DNA of 64,000 nt, from contig CAYFGX010000033.1 in NCBI GenBank assembly GCA_964342405.1, positions 3,152-67,151 on the forward strand, in the 5' to 3' direction. Under the pieces are notes generated by a model. It had not been told where the DNA came from. It saw only the letters and a program-made list of their open reading frames with translations, and made no database searches. The stretch comes from an uncultured Verrucomicrobiota bacterium (GTDB taxonomy: Bacteria; Verrucomicrobiota; Verrucomicrobiia; Limisphaerales; AAA164-E04). This document shows, in pieces, positions 6,243 through 30,138 of this stretch; positions within the stretch are counted from its first letter, which is position 1; every line of letters starts with the position of its first letter. The position numbers and the translations under genes were made by a program.

Positions 6243-7519
6243 TTTTCCTCAATTCGATAAAGATTGCTTTCCGTACGAATGATCAGAGCGTCGCCAATGA
6301 CTGCCGGCGAAGCAAATATTCGCTCCTTGAAATCGTTGGCAGCCAAGATCTGAAATTCCTCACCGGCTGAAACGACGTACACCATCCCCTCCTCTGTGCT
6401 GATATAGATTCGACCGCCAGCCAACACCGGCGAGGCCGAGACGTTACCTTTAACTCGATCCTGCCAGATAGATTCTCCCGTCAGAGCGTGAACACAGCTC
6501 ACAATCCCTCCGTCAGAAACAAAATAGAGCCGACCGGCGTTAACCAGCATGGAAGGTGTTTTCGGCCCACTTCGACTCGTCTCCCAAGTTACGTGAGAAT
6601 CGGTCACGTTGCCGACACCACCAAGCCGAATGGCCATCACTTTGGGACGCCCAAAACCTGTCGCGACATAGACGTGATCATCTTCATAAACGGGTCGAGG
6701 GACCACCGAATAACCTTGTCCGTAGTCAACCCTCCATAGCTCCGTTCCACTCACGGGATCATAACCGAACACCGCTCCACTCGCGGGACTCACAAGCACC
6801 TTTCGGTAGCTTGTCGTGATTAAGGTCGGCGTACTGAATGAGAACTTTCTCGAGGCTGCTGTTTCTCGCACGCGTTTCCACAAGAGATCTCCGGTATTCG
6901 CATCCAGCGCGACAAGCACGGGATCTTGACTCCCGTCCGCACTGTAGATCAATCGATCTCCAACCAGAATCGGCGAGCCCCCATTGCCATGGACCGGCTT
7001 GTAGGCTAGAGACTCTTGTTTCCAAATCACCTCTCCCTTCGCGGTGACACAGGCAGTGCCAAAGTGACCAAAATGGACATAGATCCGATCTCCTCCGATG
7101 ACGGGCGTTGAACTCGCGTGAGAGTTCTTACTGTGCTTCACACCGTCTTTGGGGAGATCAAACAACTCGCGGTGCCAAAGCATTTTTCCGCTCCCAGAAT
7201 CGAAACAATAGAGTCCAAGACTGCCGTCCGCAGATACTCCCTCGACCGATGATGTTAGATAGATGCGGCCTCCCTTCACCACAGGTGAGGACCAACCACT
7301 TCCGGGAACCGCTTCTCTCCAGACGATATTCTCCTCGCCCCCCCACTTCACCGGAGGATTCCCTTTCGCTAGCCCCAATCCCGCGTTCCCCCGAAATTGA
7401 ATCCAGTCTGAAGATGAAACCTCCGCCCGCAGCACCGCGCTACCAAGCATCATTAACAGACACAGGCAGCAACAGATTTCGCGAACCATTCTCTTCGTGC
7501 TCATTGCAATTCCCATCAT
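6239..7519 (-). CDS. PQQ-binding-like beta-propeller (BamB-like) protein
   Basis: DWIQFRG, GWSSPVV, HASSTPV, repeated G...W..., SASPV, ASPAV; signal peptide; ATGA overlap with the sulfatase. Confidence 0.88.
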
Positions 7520-7654
7520 GAAGTGCTGAGCCTACGCCGTTTTCCCGGTTCTAATCAACCAATCTTCGGAACCGCCACGAGAATCATCCTGACGCATCAC
7601 ATTGAATTGAAAATGAGTTTCCAAGGAGATCAGCCACAGTTAAGCTTTTCGAAA

Positions 7655-9262
7655 ATGAACACGCAACTCACAGGACATTCACTGGTATCCGGCGTTTCCA
7701 TCAACGAAACAGGAACGGTCTTTAATGCGATCAATCCATCGACGGACGAAGCGATGGAGCCGCCTTACCATCAGATCGGGAAAGAAAGCGTCGATGCGGT
7801 CGCCCAAAAGGCTCAGGAAGCATTCGGAACCTACCGCCAGAAATCAGGGGCTGAGAAAGCGGCATTCTTGCGTCAAATCGCAGACAATATTGAGGCTGTC
7901 GTTGAAGATTTAGTGGAGAGAATGCCGGCAGAAACGGCGCTACCAGAACCCCGTGTTCGCGGTGAAGCAGGCCGTACCATGGGACAGCTTCGATTGTTCG
8001 CTTCCTTGATTGAAGAGGGTTCGTGGGTGGATGCCCGAATCGAAACAGCGCTCCCAGATCGACAACCCCTGCCAAAGCCTGATGTTCGTTCCATGCTACA
8101 ACCCATCGGTCCTGTGGTCGTGTTCTGCGCGAGTAATTTCCCTCTGGCATTCTCCGTCGCTGGTGGAGATACGGCAGCGGCCCTTGCTTCGGGTTGCCCC
8201 GTGATTGTAAAGGCCCATCATTCGCATCCCGGGACAGCAGAGATCGTCGGACAAGCCATTCTGAAAGCGGTCGCTTCCTGCGAAATGCCCGAAGGCACTT
8301 TCTCGCTCGTCTACGGATCCGGTCGTGAAGTAGGCACAGCACTCGTGCAGCATCCCGCTGTCAAAGCAGTCGGGTTCACCGGATCTCGAGCAGGCGGCAC
8401 CGCCCTCATGAAGGTGGCTGCCGAGAGAGACGAACCCATACCCGTTTACGCCGAGATGAGTAGCATCAATCCCGTTGTCATTTTACCACAAGCCCTCAAA
8501 GCCAACGGAGAACAGCTTGCCGCCGGATTGCAGGGTTCGGTGACTCTCGGACTCGGACAGTTCTGCACTAATCCTGGCCTCGTCTTTTTACCTGCTGGGG
8601 CTGAAGCCGATGCGTTCGCGCAAACCCTCAAGCAGAGCCTCGCTGACACCGCAGATGGGAACTCGCTGAACGCGGGAATCGCGTCAGCCTACCGAGAGAC
8701 GATCCAACAAATCGCAAAACTCGAGCAGGACGGCGTGACAGTTCACCACAACGCCTCGGGAGATGGAGCCAATGGAAAGTGCCGCGTCGGAACGGCATTG
8801 ACTCAAGTTACGGCCGCCGCCTTCCTGGCTGAGCCTGCCTTGCATCAAGAGGCTTTTGGTCCTTCGACAACACTCGTAACCTATGAGAACGAAGCGGAGC
8901 TCGTTCAGGCGCTCTCGGCTCTGGAAGGTCAATTGACCGGAACCATTCACGGTCAGGAAGCTGAGTTGCAAGAGGCTCAAGCCGTGATTTCAGCGCTTCA
9001 ACAGCGAGTCGGCAGGCTCCTATTCGGAGGCTTTCCAACGGGAGTCGAGGTCTGCCATTCCATGGTGCACGGCGGTCCCTACCCTTCCACCAGCGATGGA
9101 CGGAGCACCTCGGTGGGCACGATGGCGATCCAACGATTCGTGCGCGCTATGTGTTACCAAAGCGCACCTGACAGTCTGCTTCCGCCCGCTCTACAAAATG
9201 CCAACCCTCTCGGGATTTCTCGATTCGTAAATGGCGATCGCAACAATGCCGCAGTCGCTTAA
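7655..9262 (+). CDS. Aldehyde dehydrogenase (NADP+), alpha-ketoglutaric semialdehyde dehydrogenase-like
   Basis: VVFCASNFPLAFSVAGGDTAAALASGCPVIVKAHHSHP, GFTGSRAGG, YAEMSSINP, GQFCTNPG, EAFGP, HGGPYP. Start trimmed to ATG 7655. Confidence 0.92.
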   Translation: MNTQLTGHSLVSGVSINETGTVFNAINPSTDEAMEPPYHQIGKESVDAVAQKAQEAFGTYRQKSGAEKAAFLRQIADNIEAVVEDLVERMPAETALPEPRVRGEAGRTMGQLRLFASLIEEGSWVDARIETALPDRQPLPKPDVRSMLQPIGPVVVFCASNFPLAFSVAGGDTAAALASGCPVIVKAHHSHPGTAEIVGQAILKAVASCEMPEGTFSLVYGSGREVGTALVQHPAVKAVGFTGSRAGGTALMKVAAERDEPIPVYAEMSSINPVVILPQALKANGEQLAAGLQGSVTLGLGQFCTNPGLVFLPAGAEADAFAQTLKQSLADTADGNSLNAGIASAYRETIQQIAKLEQDGVTVHHNASGDGANGKCRVGTALTQVTAAAFLAEPALHQEAFGPSTTLVTYENEAELVQALSALEGQLTGTIHGQEAELQEAQAVISALQQRVGRLLFGGFPTGVEVCHSMVHGGPYPSTSDGRSTSVGTMAIQRFVRAMCYQSAPDSLLPPALQNANPLGISRFVNGDRNNAAVA

Positions 9263-11513
9263 GGACCGAGGCGATCACTCTGATAACAAGCGCAGGCCCC
9301 ACCACCAGCGACAACGCGTGGTGGGGCTTCTGCTGGGCATCGGGTTGATCCTCTCGATTCTAGATTATCAAGTCGCGGGCGCCACTTCCACAAGCGAACC
9401 GACAGAGAAGCCCACGCTTCACGCATTCCGAGTTGCCGAACGGCCCACGATCGACGGCGTTTTGGATGAAGCCGCATGGGCTCAAGCCGAAAAAGCAGGG
9501 CCTCTCTATCGCTACGATCGAGAGTTTGGATCCCCAATGTCTGAGACCACCGAGTTCGCGGTCCTCTATGATGAGGACACTCTTTACATCGGCATCTGGG
9601 CTAACGATTCGAATCCAGACGGAATCAAGGCCCGCACCATGGAGCGCGACTCCAACTCCATCTTCTCAGACGACTACGTTTACCTCGTCATTGACAGTTT
9701 TCACCGACAGCGAAACGGCTACATTTTCTCGGTCAATCCGAACGGCACCCGTTACGACGCGCTCCTCACAAACAACATCTATCGCAATCGAAACTGGGAT
9801 GGAGCCTGGAGCGCACGAACGACCGTCAATGAGGAAGGCTGGAGAGTCGAAATCGCGATCCCTGCAAAATCGGTCAGTTTCGATCCCAACAATTCGACCT
9901 GGGGATTCAATATCTCTCGCACCATAGCCAGAAAAAACGAAAAGGGACGTTGGACGGGAGCGCTTCCCCACCTCTGGACCTATCATGTGTCCGAAGCAGG
10001 AGATATCGTGGACCTACAAGGACTTGATCAGGGCTTGGGCCTGGAGATAGCACCCTATGTACTTGGACGATTTCAAAGTGAGAATAGTGATACCGATCTG
10101 CTCGGCGAATTCGGAACGGATGTCCGGTACCGCATCACGCCCAACATGTCGGCAACCCTAAGCTACAACACCGATTTCGCCGAAGCGGATGTCGATCAAA
10201 GACAACTAAACTTCACGCGATTCCCATTATTCTTTCCCGAGCGCCGCGCCTTCTTTTTGGAGGACAGCGGTCTGTTCGAATTCGGCGGACTCGCCACCGC
10301 CGGCCGAAGTCGCGTGGGATTGAACCGCCCTCTCATCCCGTTCTTTTCTCGGCGTATCGGCCGAAATCTCAATGGCGAGATTGTCCCCATCATTGCCGCC
10401 GGCAAGGTCGCTGGCAGAGCCGGAAAGTACCAGCTAGGCCTCACCGACGTGCTTCTCGATTCCAAAGACGGAATCGGACAGAAGAATGTTTTCGCCGGAA
10501 GGATCGCACGGGACGTGGGCAGCCAATCAAGTGTCGGATGGCTTACCACAGCAGGCGATCCAAACAGTGACCATGACAACCTAATGGCTGGCCCAGATTT
10601 CCGCTATCGCAACACCGAGTTCATGGGCACTCAAACACTCCAAGCAAATGTCTTCGCGCTGAGCAGCTTCACCGACAATGGCGAAAGTGAAACCGGCTAC
10701 GCTCTGGGAGGCAACCTCACCCTTCCCAACGATCGATACTACCTTCACTTGCAATACGTGGAAATTGACGAAGCCTTTAATCCCGCACTCGGATTCGTGC
10801 CTCGAAAGGATATTCGCGCCTACAACAATCTCTGGGGATTCCGACCGCGACCTGCCTCAATTTCGTGGCTGCGCCAAGCGCATTTTTGGTATGAGAACGA
10901 ACACTATACCAACCTCGACAACGAACTAGAAACCTACGAACACAGAGTCACGCCACTTTCATGGGACTTCGAAAGCGGAGATGATATCTCCTTCTCTGCC
11001 ATCCATCGATATGATGCTCCGACCGATCCATTCGACATTGCGGGCGATGTGACTGTTCCCGCCGGAGATTTCTCCTGGAACAGCTATCGATTCAACGCTG
11101 ATTTCGCCGGCTATCGAGTCTTCGCCCCCGATCTAACAGTCAACTTTGGCGAGTACTACAACGGACATCGAGAAACCTATACTCTGGGAGGAGATTTCCG
11201 AAAATGGAAGTATGCCAGTCTTCGTGCCGATTATTCATTTTCAGATATTCGCCTTGCTGGGGAATCAGGCGAAACCCACCTCGCTTCCGTTCGGCTCTTA
11301 CTTTCAGTGACGCCGGATCTCTTTTGGACAAACCTACTCCAATACGACAGCATTTCAGAATCAGTCGGCTACAATAGTCGAATCCAGTGGGAGTATAAGC
11401 CGGGAGCGAAAATGTTCTTGGTTCTGAACCAGAACTACTTGGCCGACGACCTCTCATTCCGAGTACAGGAAACAGTGGCGACACTTAAGGTTGGGGGTCT
11501 ATTCCGCTTCTGA
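9231..11513 (+). CDS. DUF5916 family protein (N-terminal CBM9-like sugar-binding domain plus outer-membrane beta-barrel-like region)
   Basis: PTIDGVLDEAAW, VLYDEDTLYIGI, FSVNPNG, GWRVEIAIP, WGFN, NTDFAEADVD, FPLFFPERRAFFLE, FFSRRIG; ends in F. Start uncertain (9231, 9246 or 9318). Confidence 0.85.
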   Translation: MAIATMPQSLKDRGDHSDNKRRPHHQRQRVVGLLLGIGLILSILDYQVAGATSTSEPTEKPTLHAFRVAERPTIDGVLDEAAWAQAEKAGPLYRYDREFGSPMSETTEFAVLYDEDTLYIGIWANDSNPDGIKARTMERDSNSIFSDDYVYLVIDSFHRQRNGYIFSVNPNGTRYDALLTNNIYRNRNWDGAWSARTTVNEEGWRVEIAIPAKSVSFDPNNSTWGFNISRTIARKNEKGRWTGALPHLWTYHVSEAGDIVDLQGLDQGLGLEIAPYVLGRFQSENSDTDLLGEFGTDVRYRITPNMSATLSYNTDFAEADVDQRQLNFTRFPLFFPERRAFFLEDSGLFEFGGLATAGRSRVGLNRPLIPFFSRRIGRNLNGEIVPIIAAGKVAGRAGKYQLGLTDVLLDSKDGIGQKNVFAGRIARDVGSQSSVGWLTTAGDPNSDHDNLMAGPDFRYRNTEFMGTQTLQANVFALSSFTDNGESETGYALGGNLTLPNDRYYLHLQYVEIDEAFNPALGFVPRKDIRAYNNLWGFRPRPASISWLRQAHFWYENEHYTNLDNELETYEHRVTPLSWDFESGDDISFSAIHRYDAPTDPFDIAGDVTVPAGDFSWNSYRFNADFAGYRVFAPDLTVNFGEYYNGHRETYTLGGDFRKWKYASLRADYSFSDIRLAGESGETHLASVRLLLSVTPDLFWTNLLQYDSISESVGYNSRIQWEYKPGAKMFLVLNQNYLADDLSFRVQETVATLKVGGLFRF

Positions 11514-25339: not shown

Positions 25340-25696
25340 TCACGTTAGACCGCGCCGGTTCTCGCTTGAAAAAACTCCTAACCCCGAATTCTCATCGTGA
25401 GTCAGCGATTGAAAACGCCTAATTTTCCGGCTGTATACTGGAGCTGGATCTTTCGAATTTGCCATTCGCCGCCTCAAACGCTCCTCGAGATCCTCCATCA
25501 TTTCGACCAGCACGGCACTCTTGACGGCCATTTCATCCGCCGCCTCAGTCGCATCGTCGATCAAATCCCCCGCATCGGCTCGCCGAGCAATTACAACTCT
25601 CCCATCCTCCGAATTCTGCTTCTCGCAGATTTCGATCTCACCTTCCGGTATTCGACGTGCATTCATGACAAAATTCTTACAACAACGCGGAAACAC
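25340..25696 (-). CDS. Hypothetical protein (acidic, helical/coiled-coil centre)
   Basis: Occupies an otherwise empty region and is followed by a clean terminator. Likely start ATG 25666 (MNARRIP). No recognisable motif. Confidence 0.55.
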   Translation of the reverse strand: MFPRCCKNFVMNARRIPEGEIEICEKQNSEDGRVVIARRADAGDLIDDATEAADEMAVKSAVLVEMMEDLEERLRRRMANSKDPAPVYSRKIRRFQSLTHDENSGLGVFSSENRRGLT

Positions 25697-25820
25697 AACC
25701 AGCCGCGCCCCTCATTTATGCCATGTCATTTCCACATGACAAGAATCGAATTCCCCACAAGTTTCGCTCGCGCGCGACAGGTCAACATCCGTTCAGGACG
25801 GACGTAGAACCGCCGCCGCC

Positions 25821-25852
25821 CTTCTCTCCTTTACGACGATAAAGGAGAGAAG
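25821..25852. repeat. Perfect 13-bp inverted repeat
   Basis: CTTCTCTCCTTTA-CGACGA-TAAAGGAGAGAAG, intergenic, no U-tract on either side. Confidence 0.9.
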
Positions 25853-26046
25853 CCTAAAACAGGGAAAGTCATCCCACCAATAAAAACCCGACACATCAGC
25901 CACAGAGATGCGCTCTACTAGCGCGCTCAGAGCACGCCATACTGAACCAGCAATTACAAAAAGAAGCTATCCAACTTCTTTAGTTGACAGCAACCGTGCC
26001 CCAACACAATAACATGCATGAATACTATAATACTTCTCACAGAAAA

Positions 26047-26544
26047 ATGATGAACATATCACACTTAGGAAGACTGCTCACTCTTAGCGCTAGCCTACCC
26101 ATTGCGACCTTACTTATCACGACTGGATGCGGATCAATTGGGAAAGTCGCACCACACTCCAATCTTGGTGTCGTCGCCAACCTGGAGAGGGGCGATATTG
26201 AAGTCATCCAGACCGTCGAAGGCGAATCAACACGGCGATCGATGCTGCTCGGGAGCATTCAAATCATCGACGAAGACAAATACAAGATTCTCTGGATCCC
26301 GTTCTTCCAAGACAAGGGAGCGGGAACCTTACAAGAGAACGGGGGACTCCTATCAACCCTTACCAAACCCTTCACACCTGTTTCGGTTTTCGATCGCGCT
26401 TACTATGACGCGCTTGCCGAGACTCCTGATGCCGACACCGTATTCTATAAGAGCGCAACCCAGGAGCGACGCGGGATCCCTCTCCTCTTCACCTCTCATC
26501 GGGTGGCGCTCAGAGGAAAAGCAGCCAAGATAAAAGCTGACTGA
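26047..26544 (+). CDS. Hypothetical lipoprotein
   Basis: Lipobox-like LLITTGC after a basic-hydrophobic N-terminus; TATAAT at 26026-26031 upstream. Start trimmed to ATG 26047. Confidence 0.8.
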   Translation: MMNISHLGRLLTLSASLPIATLLITTGCGSIGKVAPHSNLGVVANLERGDIEVIQTVEGESTRRSMLLGSIQIIDEDKYKILWIPFFQDKGAGTLQENGGLLSTLTKPFTPVSVFDRAYYDALAETPDADTVFYKSATQERRGIPLLFTSHRVALRGKAAKIKAD

Positions 26545-26595
26545 ACAAGGAAAGAGGCCAAATCGAAATCGAGCGAATCGAGGAAGCCTTCTGAT

Positions 26596-26625
26596 GGGAC
26601 CAGATGCATACGTGCATCTGGTCCC
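26596..26625. repeat. Perfect 13-bp hairpin with TACG loop
   Basis: GGGACCAGATGCA-TACG-TGCATCTGGTCCC, extendable by TGA/TCA with one bulge; no U-tract. Confidence 0.9.
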
Positions 26626-26674
26626 TCACATTGGCCGAACCGCAGGCTACGAAAGCAGGTGAAACCCGGAAGCC

Positions 26675-27148
26675 ATGGCGCCTAGTCTTAATACACTCTG
26701 CCTGATTGCAGTGGCCGCCTACGCACTCAGCATTTGCTACAAAGTCCTGAAATCCGCAAATGGACGCTTCCCCCCACTTCTCGAATTCGGTGCCCTGACA
26801 TTCTATGTCTTCGCCCTGCACCGATGGACGGGTTTCCCTCATGCCCAAACTCCCTTTAACCCGAGCGTTGGCCTTGGGTTCCTCCTTGCTCTCCAGGTCG
26901 CAGTGATCCTCGGAATCTTATGCTCCCAGGGATATCACTTGGAGCCCTCCAAGGCCTGGGCATGGTTCGACTTGGTTCGGCCCGTCATGATCGCGCCCCT
27001 CCTCCTTCTCCCGTTGCTAGCTTCTTTGGACTCGTGTGGAGAGCGAAGCAACCTTCAGAACGTTTCCTTTCTCCTCCTTGCCTTTCAAAACGGATTCTTC
27101 TGGCGCAGCCTCTTTCAGAAAATCAGAACGAGAGAGGAAAGGGTTTGA
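26675..27148 (+). CDS. Hypothetical integral membrane protein (about 4-5 TM)
   Basis: Several hydrophobic segments; C-terminal LLAFQNGFFW motif; stop overlaps the start of the caspase gene. Confidence 0.8.
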   Translation: MAPSLNTLCLIAVAAYALSICYKVLKSANGRFPPLLEFGALTFYVFALHRWTGFPHAQTPFNPSVGLGFLLALQVAVILGILCSQGYHLEPSKAWAWFDLVRPVMIAPLLLLPLLASLDSCGERSNLQNVSFLLLAFQNGFFWRSLFQKIRTREERV

Positions 27149-28506
27149 GACCTCTCAGCATCATCGCCACGATCAGCATCACTATCGCCACGCTTGTAGA
27201 GGCGGCAAAGCCTGACTGTCCCAGCGAGTACCAGAGGTATTTTAGACACTTCTCAGACGCCCGATCACTACCTGACCGCCTGTACCATGCACTCGGATTC
27301 GAGCGAGACCGGATCGGTCGCAGCCACGCACTCATTGCGGGTGTTTCAAATTACCCAGAGATCCCAGAACAGCTCCCACCGGCGCGCGCTGATATTGAAA
27401 AGATCGAAACCTGGCTCAGGAATTCAGGTCACTTTGATGAAATAGTCGTTCTTCACAACAATTCCTTCAACGTCGCTAACCTAAATTATTTCCTGAGAGA
27501 GTATTTTCCTCAACGACTTCAGACCTTTCCAAAATCACGTTTCCTTTTTGCCTTCTCCGGTCACGGCATTCAACAAGGCCGCTCTTCTTACCTTTTGACT
27601 CCCAAATCCCGCACCTTCAAAGACACGGCAAGAGCGATTGATATGAGGGAATTGAGGGTAAAACTGGATAAGACCCTCGAAGCCGCTTACCAATCACTCG
27701 TCCTAATCAATTCTTGTTACAGCGGGGCCTTCGTGACAGACCGGTCATTCGGTGAAAGATCCTACATCCCACAAGGCCCAGGCGCCCATGCGATCACAGC
27801 TGGACGAGCCAATGAGAGAGTTTTTGCTGATTCCAACTTCGGGACAGGGAGCTACTTTTTCGAGACAATTCTGAGCGGTTTGCAAGGCAGAGCGGATCTC
27901 CTTCCGCGTCACCCCGAGGGAGCGAGCGGGAACGGAGTCATTTCGATCACTGAATTATTTACGTATTTAGATGAGGTGATCGGAAACCGATACGGAACGC
28001 AAGTAAACCCCATCTTCGCCGATCTTGATCCTCGGGGCAGTCAGGGCGGTTTCTTCTTTTTCACACCCGATGCAGAACCGAAGAGAATTGAGCAATCACG
28101 AACCCTGAAAACAGGAGTTCCATTCGGCACGAGTAATCGTTTCGAAAGCATTTCGAGCAACCGGGTTCGCGACCGCGAGCTGGAGTGCGACTGGGTCCTT
28201 TACCCCAACGGGAATTATCTCAGCTGGAACGAGGCGCTCGATTGGTGCCAAGAGAGTGAACTCGTTCTCCCAAGCCCCGAAGAGTTGCTGGAGCTTACTG
28301 ATTCAGGACCAGAGTCGAATCATAGCATTTCGCAGCTCCTGTCTCTTTTCAAAACCCCTCGTACCCCGGAAGTGTTTTGGACCTCAACGAGAAAAGGGTT
28401 TTACCGCGAAGCACTTCGTCTTGTCCCAGGGCCACCCAAGCTGCAGCGAAGAAACCCAGCTGACAAATGCGGCGTCCTCGCTCGTTCAGCATTGGACCAA
28501 CCGTAG
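27145..28506 (+). CDS. Caspase-like (peptidase C14) protease with signal peptide and C-terminal DUF1566/Lcl-like domain
   Basis: HALIAGVSNY, FAFSGHG (His), LINSCYSG (Cys), ITAGRANE, SYFFETILSGLQGRAD, GVISITELFTYL; C-terminal SWNEALDWC..LPSPEELLEL..FWTST. TTG 27145 (TTGA overlap, GAGAGG upstream) gives MRPLSIIATISITIATLVEA. Confidence 0.87.
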   Translation: MRPLSIIATISITIATLVEAAKPDCPSEYQRYFRHFSDARSLPDRLYHALGFERDRIGRSHALIAGVSNYPEIPEQLPPARADIEKIETWLRNSGHFDEIVVLHNNSFNVANLNYFLREYFPQRLQTFPKSRFLFAFSGHGIQQGRSSYLLTPKSRTFKDTARAIDMRELRVKLDKTLEAAYQSLVLINSCYSGAFVTDRSFGERSYIPQGPGAHAITAGRANERVFADSNFGTGSYFFETILSGLQGRADLLPRHPEGASGNGVISITELFTYLDEVIGNRYGTQVNPIFADLDPRGSQGGFFFFTPDAEPKRIEQSRTLKTGVPFGTSNRFESISSNRVRDRELECDWVLYPNGNYLSWNEALDWCQESELVLPSPEELLELTDSGPESNHSISQLLSLFKTPRTPEVFWTSTRKGFYREALRLVPGPPKLQRRNPADKCGVLARSALDQP

Positions 28507-28599
28507 AGCGAGGAATTCTCAAACCTTGCTATCGAGCCAAAAGCTTGGACCTAGACATTTTTCATTCGCCCAAGCCGGTTGATGAGCCTACTCTAGGGA

Positions 28600-30138
28600 A
28601 TGCCCCAATCGTCCGAATCAGGAACTTGTGAAGCACCCACGCGTCTTGCGGGAATTATGCGATCCATCGGGCCCGGCTTCATTCTCGCGGGAGCTCTCGT
28701 AGGGTCAGGGGAACTCATCGCCACGACAGCAACAGGCGCGGAATCAGGATTCTCTCTGCTTTGGCTCATCATTCTCGGGTGTGTGATTAAGGTTTTCGTG
28801 CAGGTCGAAATCGGACGCCACACAATTACTCACAGCGAGTCAGCTCTTGAAGCACTGAACAGTGTCCCAGGACCCCGTCTCGATTTCCCAATCAAGCGGA
28901 ACGACACACGAGTCGGGGTGAACTGGATCGTCGCTTGTTGGCTGCTGATGTTTATGGCCACCATATTCCTCTTTGGCGGAATTATCGGAGGGATTGGACA
29001 ATCGCTGGCGATGACCCTCCCGCTCACCGAGGAAGGAAAGGCCTACAATGCTTACCAAGACAAATCGACTCAGCTTACCATTGCTAGAACGGAGCTAGCC
29101 TCCAATCCGGACTTGTCACAACGCGTTGCGGAACTTGAATCCGAACTCGCCGAGATTTCTCTCCCTGCACAGCCGCTCGACGATCGCTATTGGGCAAGTA
29201 TCGTCACGATGCTGACGGTGTGCATCCTCTTGCTGGGGCGCTACCGACATATCGAAAAGCTAGCACTAGCCCTGGTCGGTTTCTTCACTCTCATCACGAT
29301 CTACAATCTGTTCCGACTCCAAAGTTACGAGGCCTGGGCAATCGGGTCCCATGAACTGATGGACGGATTGAGTTTCTCGCTTCCGAGAGGCATCGAAGGT
29401 CACAACCCGATGGCTACCGCACTCGCAACCTTTGGAATCATCGGGGTTGGCGCCTCAGATCTTGTGGCCTACCCATATTGGTGTCTTGAGAAAGGCTACG
29501 CGCGATGGACGGGGAAAAATGATGGATCAGCTTCCTGGCTACGACGGGCGAAAGGTTGGCTTCGAGTGCTTCAATGGGATGCCTGGTCTGCCTGCCTCCT
29601 CTACACATTCACAACGGTCGCTTTCTATCTGCTCGGGGCGGCCGTTCTCGGTCGAACAGGGCTGATCCCAGAAGGTCCAGACATGATTCGCACGCTTGCC
29701 ACCATGTATGCTCCTGTCTTCGGGGACTTCGCGCAGCTCCTTTTCTTGTTCGGTGCGATTGCAGTTCTCTACTCTACATTCTTTATCGGTAATGCGGGCC
29801 ATTGCAGGCTGGCTACCGATGCACTGTGCGTCCTCCGTCTTTACGACGATAAGACGATGAATCGTGATTTATGGATGAAACGATTCGCGATCGTTCTTCC
29901 CATCCTGTGTGTGGCAACCTATTACACCGTCGGCAGCCCAGTCGCTCTCGTGCTCATAGGAGGCATTGCTCAAGCCCTCTTGCTACCAATGGTCGCCTTT
30001 GCAGCCCTGTTTTTCCGCTATCGAAAATGCCATCCAGAATTGAGACCGGACCGTCTCTGGGACTTTTTCTTAGGCACGTCCTTTTTGGCGTTTACCGTGA
30101 TCGGCCTTTACTTGATTTACGTGAACGTAAGCAAATAG
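28600..30138 (+). CDS. Nramp-family (YcsG-like) divalent metal/solute transporter
   Basis: IGPGFILAGALVGSGELIAT, GFSLLWLIILGCVIKVFVQVEIGRH, FGIIGVGA, YPYWCLEKGY; about 11 TM. Confidence 0.85.
   Translation: MPQSSESGTCEAPTRLAGIMRSIGPGFILAGALVGSGELIATTATGAESGFSLLWLIILGCVIKVFVQVEIGRHTITHSESALEALNSVPGPRLDFPIKRNDTRVGVNWIVACWLLMFMATIFLFGGIIGGIGQSLAMTLPLTEEGKAYNAYQDKSTQLTIARTELASNPDLSQRVAELESELAEISLPAQPLDDRYWASIVTMLTVCILLLGRYRHIEKLALALVGFFTLITIYNLFRLQSYEAWAIGSHELMDGLSFSLPRGIEGHNPMATALATFGIIGVGASDLVAYPYWCLEKGYARWTGKNDGSASWLRRAKGWLRVLQWDAWSACLLYTFTTVAFYLLGAAVLGRTGLIPEGPDMIRTLATMYAPVFGDFAQLLFLFGAIAVLYSTFFIGNAGHCRLATDALCVLRLYDDKTMNRDLWMKRFAIVLPILCVATYYTVGSPVALVLIGGIAQALLLPMVAFAALFFRYRKCHPELRPDRLWDFFLGTSFLAFTVIGLYLIYVNVSK

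Follow-up and report, generated by a model that had tools for sequence, protein, structure and literature searches.

A family of predicted five-helix membrane proteins paired with predicted exported caspase-like proteases in bacteria

Two overlapping genes of an uncultured Verrucomicrobiota bacterium (Limisphaerales, AAA164-E04; assembly GCA_964342405.1) are described here as members of a widespread two-gene cassette. They lie in a 64,000-nucleotide stretch of contig CAYFGX010000033.1 (positions 3,152 to 67,151, forward strand), hereafter the window, whose numbering is used throughout. The first gene, open reading frame (ORF) A (26675..27148, + strand), encodes a 157-amino-acid predicted inner-membrane protein with five predicted helices and of an unnamed family. 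The second gene, ORF B (27145..28506, + strand), encodes a 453-amino-acid caspase-like cysteine protease of the metacaspase type, predicted to be exported and to carry a C-terminal lectin-like domain. We are highly confident that the two genes form one functional unit in the cell envelope. The architecture of ORF B has long been known, and what is new is the partner membrane family together with the obligate pairing; neither the ORF A family nor a pairing of such a membrane protein with a caspase was found described in a literature search. The cassette suggests an undescribed caspase-based sensing or killing module outside the cytoplasm.

The pairing was assessed in 173 loci with an ORF A homologue, collected by identity look-up, from 185,579 species genomes and from metagenomes. 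The six-frame ORFs of these loci were scored with hidden Markov models built from the two families. A Peptidase_C14 gene was found directly adjacent to the membrane gene in 127 of the 173 loci, as the initial annotation had expected of homologues of ORF A: the caspase gene directly follows the membrane gene on the same strand in 98 loci, directly precedes it in 27, and adjoins it in divergent orientation in two (L015 and L041). Another 20 loci are interrupted by a contig end. About 26 loci have no adjacent caspase gene; almost without exception, their family member is a weak and incomplete match that covers just the C-terminal half (E 1e-8 to 1e-15), and some of these matches sit within longer proteins of 260-330 amino acids. 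Where the caspase gene is downstream, its start usually overlaps the membrane gene (85/98 loci), either by 4 nucleotides (20 loci) or by 11-41 nucleotides (65 loci). The distance matrices of the two proteins, compared over 78 non-redundant pairs, are also correlated (Mantel r=0.82), and a value as high was reached in 0 of 999 permutations. Judging from these comparisons of sequences and gene order, the pairing of ORF A with ORF B is far beyond chance.

The gene order is reversed, with the caspase gene before the membrane gene, in a subclade of ten loci (L049, L053, L056, L058, L064, L065, L068, L071, L073 and L080) that come mostly from Vicinamibacterales-type Acidobacteriota. The caspases of this subclade carry an extra N-terminal ~200 amino acids, and a conserved secreted protein of ~400 amino acids with no Pfam match is encoded directly upstream. 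When the neighbours of 104 non-redundant loci were clustered all against all for a conserved third gene, antisense artefacts and this subclade-specific secreted protein were all that emerged.

In the window, the TTG start codon of ORF B (27145-27147) and the TGA stop codon of ORF A (27146-27148) share a TTGA overlap at 27145..27148 on the + strand, exactly as first annotated, and the purine-rich sequence GAGAGGAAAGGG lies directly 5' of the TTG. The stop codon of ORF B is at 28504-28506. The frame of ORF B is open as far back as an ATG at 26920, and this longer start was dropped because the orthologues begin at an ATGA or TTGA overlap of 4 nucleotides, followed by a short basic and then hydrophobic N-terminus (MxxL... 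pattern); the start was therefore placed at 27145. The overlap indicates putative translational coupling of the two genes.

ORF A has no match in Pfam, NCBIfam (E<=0.1) or PADLOC, and the earlier statement that it belongs to no named family holds in these databases and in a fold search of the PDB described below. A single-sequence search with ORF A returned only nine relatives, and a profile built from those nine retrieved at least 463 proteins. When 1.84 billion cluster representatives (50% identity clusters) were searched exhaustively with a profile, 736 representatives were found at E<=0.001, of which 294 at E<=1e-10 and 82 at E<=1e-30. No Pfam domain was found on the members of the family, and the source databases label them hypothetical. 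A new membrane protein family of about 736 clusters at 50% identity, unannotated so far, is thereby defined. Two homologues carry Joint Genome Institute (JGI) names, "DMT-like permease" and "small-conductance mechanosensitive channel"; these names are unsupported, given no Pfam match and no PDB fold match.

Twelve residues are invariant in 119 sequences of the family (F61, G80, P103, P108, P113, L114, F137, Q138, G140, F141, F142 and W143). Two segments are conserved. One is a strongly conserved loop, TGFPxx(R/K)xAFGGxSP, which reads WTGFPHAQTPFNPS in the window; its position 58 is basic (Arg or Lys) in 83 of 119 members by one count, and Arg in 70% and Lys in a further 11% of members by another. 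The other is a core that comprises transmembrane helices (TM) 4 and 5 and the tail, RPxxxxPxxLLPLLxS...SFxxLAFQNGFFW(K/R). The motif LLAFQNGFFW, with which ORF A was initially said to end, is present, and it stands 14 residues before the end, followed by RSLFQKIRTREERV.

An AlphaFold2 model of ORF A, made from the family alignment (predicted local distance difference test, pLDDT, 82.6), has helices at residues 3-26, 32-52, 67-87, 97-119 (kinked) and 126-156, which bears out the polytopic protein of 157 residues and gives it five predicted helices. No fold match to this model was found in the PDB by Foldseek (best E=2.8, TM-score at most 0.35). Family-wide counts of Lys and Arg are high for loop 27-31 (3.05), loop 88-96 (1.93) and the C-terminal tail (3.04), and low for loop 53-66 (~1) and loop 120-125 (0.29). 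By the positive-inside rule, these counts place the N-terminus of ORF A outside and its C-terminus inside, and loops 53-66 and 120-125 are thus predicted to face the periplasm, so that ORF A would present the conserved loop 53-66 on the side to which ORF B is predicted to be exported. Natural fusions of ORF A with ORF B, sought as evidence on topology, were not present in the 173 loci. In the homologue P0246, reading continues from the membrane protein into the caspase, and in P0259 the membrane domain is joined to a signal peptide and Sel1 repeats, with no caspase domain; both were rejected as true fusions, for they look like frameshifts within the overlap, and both would be consistent with a cytoplasmic C-terminal tail that is followed by a signal peptide. 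A distant member, P0371, has a C-terminal extension of ~270 amino acids after the membrane domain, which by eye is a cytoplasmic coiled coil.

ORF B matches the Pfam family Peptidase_C14 (PF00656) over residues 60-202 with 32.1 bits (E=1.2e-7; cut-off 21.4 bits), and its catalytic domain (p20/p10-like) was assigned to 27217..28074 on the + strand. The same match was found in 69 of the 71 full-length partner caspases. The His-Cys dyad reported in the initial annotation is intact, with His140 (codon cac, 27562-27564) in SGHG and Cys191 (codon tgt, 27715-27717) in NSCYSG, motifs that align with YSGHG and DSCHSG of metacaspase-1. Both residues are invariant in 71/71 partner caspases, and so is Asp83 (27391-27393), which aligns with the S1 Asp of the metacaspase CxxD motif (INDA in metacaspase-1). 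In the AlphaFold2 model of ORF B, the core (residues 25-310) has a pLDDT above 90, and its nearest structures by Foldseek are the MALT1 paracaspase and metacaspases (E 1e-8 to 1e-11); probability was 1.00 against MALT1, Yca1, AtMC9, TbMCA2 and caspases 3, 7 and 9. A profile of the domain only, searched against the PDB, likewise found Metacaspase-1 (E=9e-10). From this likeness, ORF B is likely to prefer basic P1 residues.

The N-terminus of ORF B, MRPLSIIATISITIATLVEA followed by AKP, can be read heuristically as a predicted Sec signal peptide (27145..27204, + strand) with n-, h- and c-regions: a basic n-region, a 16-residue uncharged h-region, and a VEA-A site with V and A at -3 and -1, so that cleavage would be expected after VEA. 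The signal-peptide-like N-terminus noted earlier for the 27145 start is seen across the family by the same kind of reading, since in 69 of the 71 partner caspases the basic residues near the N-terminus are followed by an uncharged, hydrophobic run of nine or more residues (median 15). An AxA-like site is frequent in them, and a conserved VPxxYxxFFxxYxDxRS segment then follows. It is very likely, as far as these sequence features can tell, that ORF B is catalytically competent, with an intact dyad, and exported. The conserved adjacency and the export-like N-termini support the earlier proposal of a candidate new system located in the envelope.

The C-terminal domain of ORF B had been assigned to the Lcl/DUF1566 family. 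There is similarity, and the domain (28165..28401, + strand) is no more than a divergent, sub-threshold match to this C-type-lectin-like group: Pfam PF07603 (Lcl_C/DUF1566) scores 15.1 bits (E=0.028) against the last 150 residues, with a cut-off of 34.9 bits. Among the orthologues, the same model scores 27.8 bits (E=3.3e-6) at L002 and 12.3 bits at L094, both below the cut-off, and gives no match at L001 and L050; a close relative, P0057, has a precomputed PF07603 match. The domain is poorly defined in the AlphaFold2 model (pLDDT 44-77). The C-terminal domains of the 71 partner caspases are diverse, with Sel1 in 16, FGE-sulfatase in 9, TPR in ~6, Lcl_C in 5, PDZ in 2 and WD40 in 1, and many of the partners have no recognisable C-terminal domain. 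The prediction that the C-terminal third of ORF B is an exchangeable binding module is firmly supported by this comparison.

All loci were also compared with themselves for repeat pairs with mismatches at the adenines of one copy, the mark of a diversity-generating retroelement (DGR). Such pairs were found in two Nitrospirales loci, L027 and L030, and in both the variable repeat falls in the FGE-sulfatase domain of the partner caspase. At L027, the variable repeat is formed by the final 116 nucleotides (8395-8510) of the caspase-FGE-sulfatase gene, and its template is at 10175-10290; 14/14 mismatches are at template adenines, and an RVT_1 gene (8986-10098) lies between the repeats. At L030, the repeats are at 8435-8522 and 11361-11448, again with an RVT_1 gene, and 12/12 mismatches are at template adenines. 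By these signatures, the C-terminal domain is the variable region of a DGR in part of the family. DGR targeting provides strong indirect evidence that the C-terminal domain binds a changing ligand. The ligand-sensing role first suggested for this domain has gained indirect support from domain swapping and from the DGRs of L027 and L030. For the window copy, a DGR was sought in the window and its genome and none was found: no stretch of ORF B recurs in the window as a template repeat, and the one RVT_1 gene in the genome is on another contig.

The cassette was found in at least 10 phyla and in otherwise unrelated contexts. The carriers include Acidobacteriota, Nitrospirota, cable bacteria, Alpha- and Gammaproteobacteria, Gemmatimonadota, Verrucomicrobiota, Bacteroidota, Cyanobacteria and Chloroflexota, and among cultured strains Bradyrhizobium guangxiense CCBAU 53363, Cognaticolwellia mytili KCTC 52417 and Tunturiibacter psychrotolerans X4BP1. 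The window genome (8.5 Mb, from a marine metagenome) has one copy, and ten carriers that were examined have one or two copies each. Within lineages the distribution is sporadic. The membrane gene was found in one of 40 relatives of the window genome from the same genus, family or order (2/41 with the window genome), in 0 of 40 other genomes of the family of a cable-bacterium carrier (1/41 with the carrier), and in two of 60 other genomes of the order of a Nitrospira carrier (3/61 with the carrier), so that 6/143 sampled genomes over the three lineages have the cassette. Such a rare and patchy presence over many phyla indicates that the ORF A/ORF B pair is probably an accessory cassette spread by horizontal transfer.

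Four groups of known systems resemble parts of the cassette. EACC1 is a protein of ~110 amino acids with a single TM helix and alpha+beta elements that is cleaved by a cytoplasmic caspase (Kaur et al. 2020, PMC7159879; Evans et al. 2025, 10.1101/2025.11.14.688446); it is a latent pore, licensed through cleavage by the neighbouring caspase (10.1101/2025.11.14.688446). The likeness to ORF A/ORF B is one of layout only, with a small membrane-protein gene 5' and, 3' of it, a gene for an N-terminal caspase with a variable C-terminus. Some EACC1 systems are also linked to DGRs, and in them a constant pair moves with swapped sensor or effector domains (PMC7159879; 10.1101/2025.11.14.688446). ORF A differs from EACC1 in its 157 amino acids, its five predicted helices and the lack of any NCBIfam or Pfam match, and ORF B differs from the EACC1-associated caspases by its export signal, which would place the chemistry in the periplasm. 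Membership in the EACC1-caspase systems was rejected on the five helices of ORF A, which match no model, and on the score of ORF B against caspase_w_EACC1 (NF047832), 48 bits with a cut-off of 140. For the candidate system as a whole, a search of PADLOC-DB 2.0 returned no match to ORF A and only a generic caspase match to ORF B (PDLC02987, E=5e-8).

Bacterial metacaspases and orthocaspases that begin with a TM helix or signal peptide and also contain Sel1, TPR, WD40 or FGE-sulfatase domains have been catalogued (PMC3501461). ORF B fits this class of Asplund-Samuelsson et al. 2012: Peptidase_C14 and a His-Cys dyad are combined with what is probably a signal peptide and with interaction domains at the C-terminus; that survey gives the architectures and some operons, without any conserved five-helix membrane partner (PMC3501461). 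DdvA, a transmembrane anti-sigma factor of Myxococcus xanthus, controls a defence island through a TPR-CHAT domain in the periplasm (PMC11506125). Here, too, a caspase-fold domain in the periplasm is tied to the inner membrane, and outside-in proteolytic signalling has been proposed in a context of phage defence. DdvA is made as one polypeptide and has a zinc anti-sigma domain in the cytoplasm, a cognate extracytoplasmic function (ECF) sigma factor and an incomplete dyad (PMC11506125), whereas the ORF A/ORF B cassette has a separate soluble protease with an intact dyad, no cytoplasmic domain on ORF A and no linked sigma factor. In the DGR-diversified conflict systems with C-lectin "antigen sensors", some sensors are predicted to be periplasmic (Dore et al. 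2024, PMC10907252), and the FGE-sulfatase/C-lectin domain of the partner caspase is a DGR variable region at L027 and L030. Those systems centre on STAND or MoxR-vWA NTPases (PMC10907252); the ORF A/ORF B cassette has no NTPase, and its window copy has no reverse transcriptase or template repeat.

The cassette is of the type that consists of a protease and a small membrane partner, with a new membrane family and an inverted topology. We infer a periplasmic sensor-protease that acts on or through ORF A, which leaves as a candidate the first suggestion that the protease would cleave or gate its membrane partner, perhaps in defence, stress or interbacterial conflict. In the mechanism that we favour, the overlapping genes would couple the translation of the two proteins and match their amounts, and the exported protease would dock on the conserved periplasmic face of ORF A (loop 53-66). 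A ligand bound at the variable C-terminal domain would activate the protease, which would then act on ORF A, by cleavage in or near loop 53-66 or by release of ORF A. The TM4-TM5-tail core would in turn alter the permeability or the signalling state of the inner membrane. ORF A would be the output element, a conserved helical core that changes the state of the membrane after proteolysis. We favour this role because the layout parallels that of EACC1-caspase pairs, whose small partner is a latent pore; because DGR targeting and a sporadic distribution are typical of conflict systems (PMC10907252); because the basic loop residue (Arg or Lys at position 58) suits a metacaspase-type enzyme; and because DdvA is a precedent for a periplasmic caspase-fold domain that controls defence (PMC11506125). 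By analogy, the module would work from the outside in, as a counterpart to the EACC1-caspase and gasdermin-protease modules of the cytoplasm. The mechanism in full, from docking and the ligand switch to the action on ORF A and the membrane effect, is proposed tentatively, with confidence somewhat short of even.

Several observations weigh against this mechanism. Docking and cleavage are pure inference, and ligand activation and the membrane effect are proposals too. Cleavage at loop 53-66 cannot be universal, because the window clade has Gln58 and so no basic residue in the loop. The specificity of the protease is uncertain as well, since ORF B has Asn189 where metacaspase-1 has the second S1 Asp, two residues before the catalytic Cys. 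The best-conserved residues of ORF A, FQNGFFW and the start of TM4, are at the predicted cytoplasmic face and thus beyond the reach of a periplasmic protease, and a structural or transducing role fits this conservation equally well as an effector role. Export of ORF B is predicted from heuristics only. Among 141 flanking genes from ~45 loci, no Pfam family occurs more than three times, and a tally of the same genes with Pfam and PADLOC gave few defence models and no enrichment of a defence-island context. The neighbours in the window are housekeeping-like, among them a hybrid histidine kinase and an Nramp transporter. Expression is hinted at by a single 166-nucleotide contig of a marine metatranscriptome (run X9), which exactly matches the caspase gene at 27522-27687; as the sole RNA trace, inside ORF B, it is too little for co-transcription.

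The main rival explanation fits the same data nearly as well as the favoured mechanism. ORF A would be an anchor or regulator that holds the exported protease on the outer side of the inner membrane and may also inhibit it, with other envelope proteins as the substrates; these would be picked by the Sel1, TPR, PDZ or lectin domain, and the cassette would serve regulated envelope proteolysis and be no death or immune module. Prc with NlpI and the DegP-type PDZ proteases provide the comparison. A stoichiometric complex would be in keeping with the gene overlap and the tight co-evolution, domains like those at the C-terminus are a classic means by which periplasmic proteases bind substrates or adaptors, and the housekeeping-like surroundings without defence enrichment are as expected. 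Conservation of ORF A that peaks in the membrane and at the cytoplasmic face, away from the candidate cleavage site, points the same way, as does the window clade without the basic loop residue. On the other side, a simple tether needs no five helices with twelve invariant residues, and housekeeping proteolysis would not usually come with so patchy a distribution or with a binding domain hypermutated by a DGR. We consider this explanation possible, if rather doubtful.

Further alternatives are less probable. The conserved juxtamembrane motif and short tail of ORF A at the cytoplasmic face, the extension of P0371 and the precedent of DdvA (PMC11506125) would suit a signal transducer, in which ligand-dependent action of the protease on ORF A alters the cytoplasmic tail (FQNGFFW-KEVLERA) and so reaches an unlinked partner in the cytoplasm or at the inner leaflet, much as in the regulated proteolysis of anti-sigma factors such as DdvA. 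Against this, the tail has only ~14 residues, and the cassette is not linked to a sigma factor, a kinase or any further conserved gene; we regard the transducer as improbable. Exported enzymes of clan CD can work as transamidases in company with multi-pass membrane subunits. Like legumain, GPI8 or PorU, ORF B might be a clan CD transpeptidase or sorting enzyme, with ORF A as a polytopic subunit that presents a lipid or cell-surface acceptor. The caspase fold and predicted export of ORF B agree with this proposal, which is otherwise drawn by analogy with the clan CD transamidases only. No recurrent cargo genes or sorting-signal proteins are nearby, the sequence and fold of ORF B are nearer to metacaspases and the paracaspase than to legumain or gingipain-type enzymes, and neither DGR targeting nor variable, sensor-like domains at the C-terminus would suit a sorting enzyme; we regard such an enzyme as very improbable. 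Finally, that ORF A and ORF B are mere neighbours without a functional link is scarcely credible, given an adjacency in 127/173 loci over many phyla, usually with overlapping genes and in contexts otherwise unrelated, and the correlation of the distance matrices (r=0.82).

To our knowledge, the characterised bacterial caspase-type systems (gasdermin, EACC1, type III-E/III-B CRISPR proteases and Thoeris-linked caspases) are all cytoplasmic. An exported caspase with an intact dyad and a membrane protein of its own points to periplasmic proteolytic switching, which has hardly been explored, and a cassette of two genes only, present in cultured strains, is directly testable. At its furthest, the favoured mechanism would make this the first extracytoplasmic caspase-effector module, in which a soluble periplasmic receptor-caspase licenses a five-helix protein to depolarise or permeabilise the inner membrane; we think this unlikely. 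If it were true, a cue at the envelope, for example from a phage attack, a molecule of a competitor or a damaged cell wall, would be read by an exchangeable and sometimes DGR-hypermutated receptor domain, and caspase-triggered cell death or immunity would be run outside the cytoplasm, before the genome of an invader acts.

Two loci with incomplete or weak family members have defence-related neighbours. At L045 (3795-7266), a truncated membrane-protein copy of 100 amino acids stands beside a Cap4-like nuclease-SAVED CBASS effector (PADLOC E=2.5e-198); its other flank is, by eye, a CHAT-domain fragment, and an integrase-like gene, also recognised by eye, adjoins. The copy seems to have decayed within a defence or mobile region. 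At L054, the gene after a weak family member encodes a TIR protein.

In the window, a lipoprotein-like gene (…LLITTGCGS…; 26047-26544, + strand) lies 5' of ORF A and has no Pfam or NCBIfam match. It is 74% identical in the syntenic locus L002, is also present at L001 and L094, and is conserved better than ORF A and ORF B; it was absent from all 40 relatives of the window genome and from the other loci of the family. It may be a clade-specific third component or a mere syntenic neighbour. Rfam, promoter and terminator scans of 25600-28800 gave nothing useful. The 130-nucleotide gap between the lipoprotein-like gene and ORF A contains a hairpin (26596-26625) with a perfect 13-bp stem, GGGACCAGATGCA...TGCATCTGGTCCC, and a fold z-score of -3.4. 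The hairpin has no T-run 3' of the stem and no Rfam match, and could be a transcript-stabilising, attenuating or repetitive extragenic palindromic (REP)-like element. On the syntenic 9.8-Mb contig of L001, an IS200-type Y1 transposase gene (7317-7733, - strand) lies between the lipoprotein and membrane genes and occupies the same place as the hairpin of the window.

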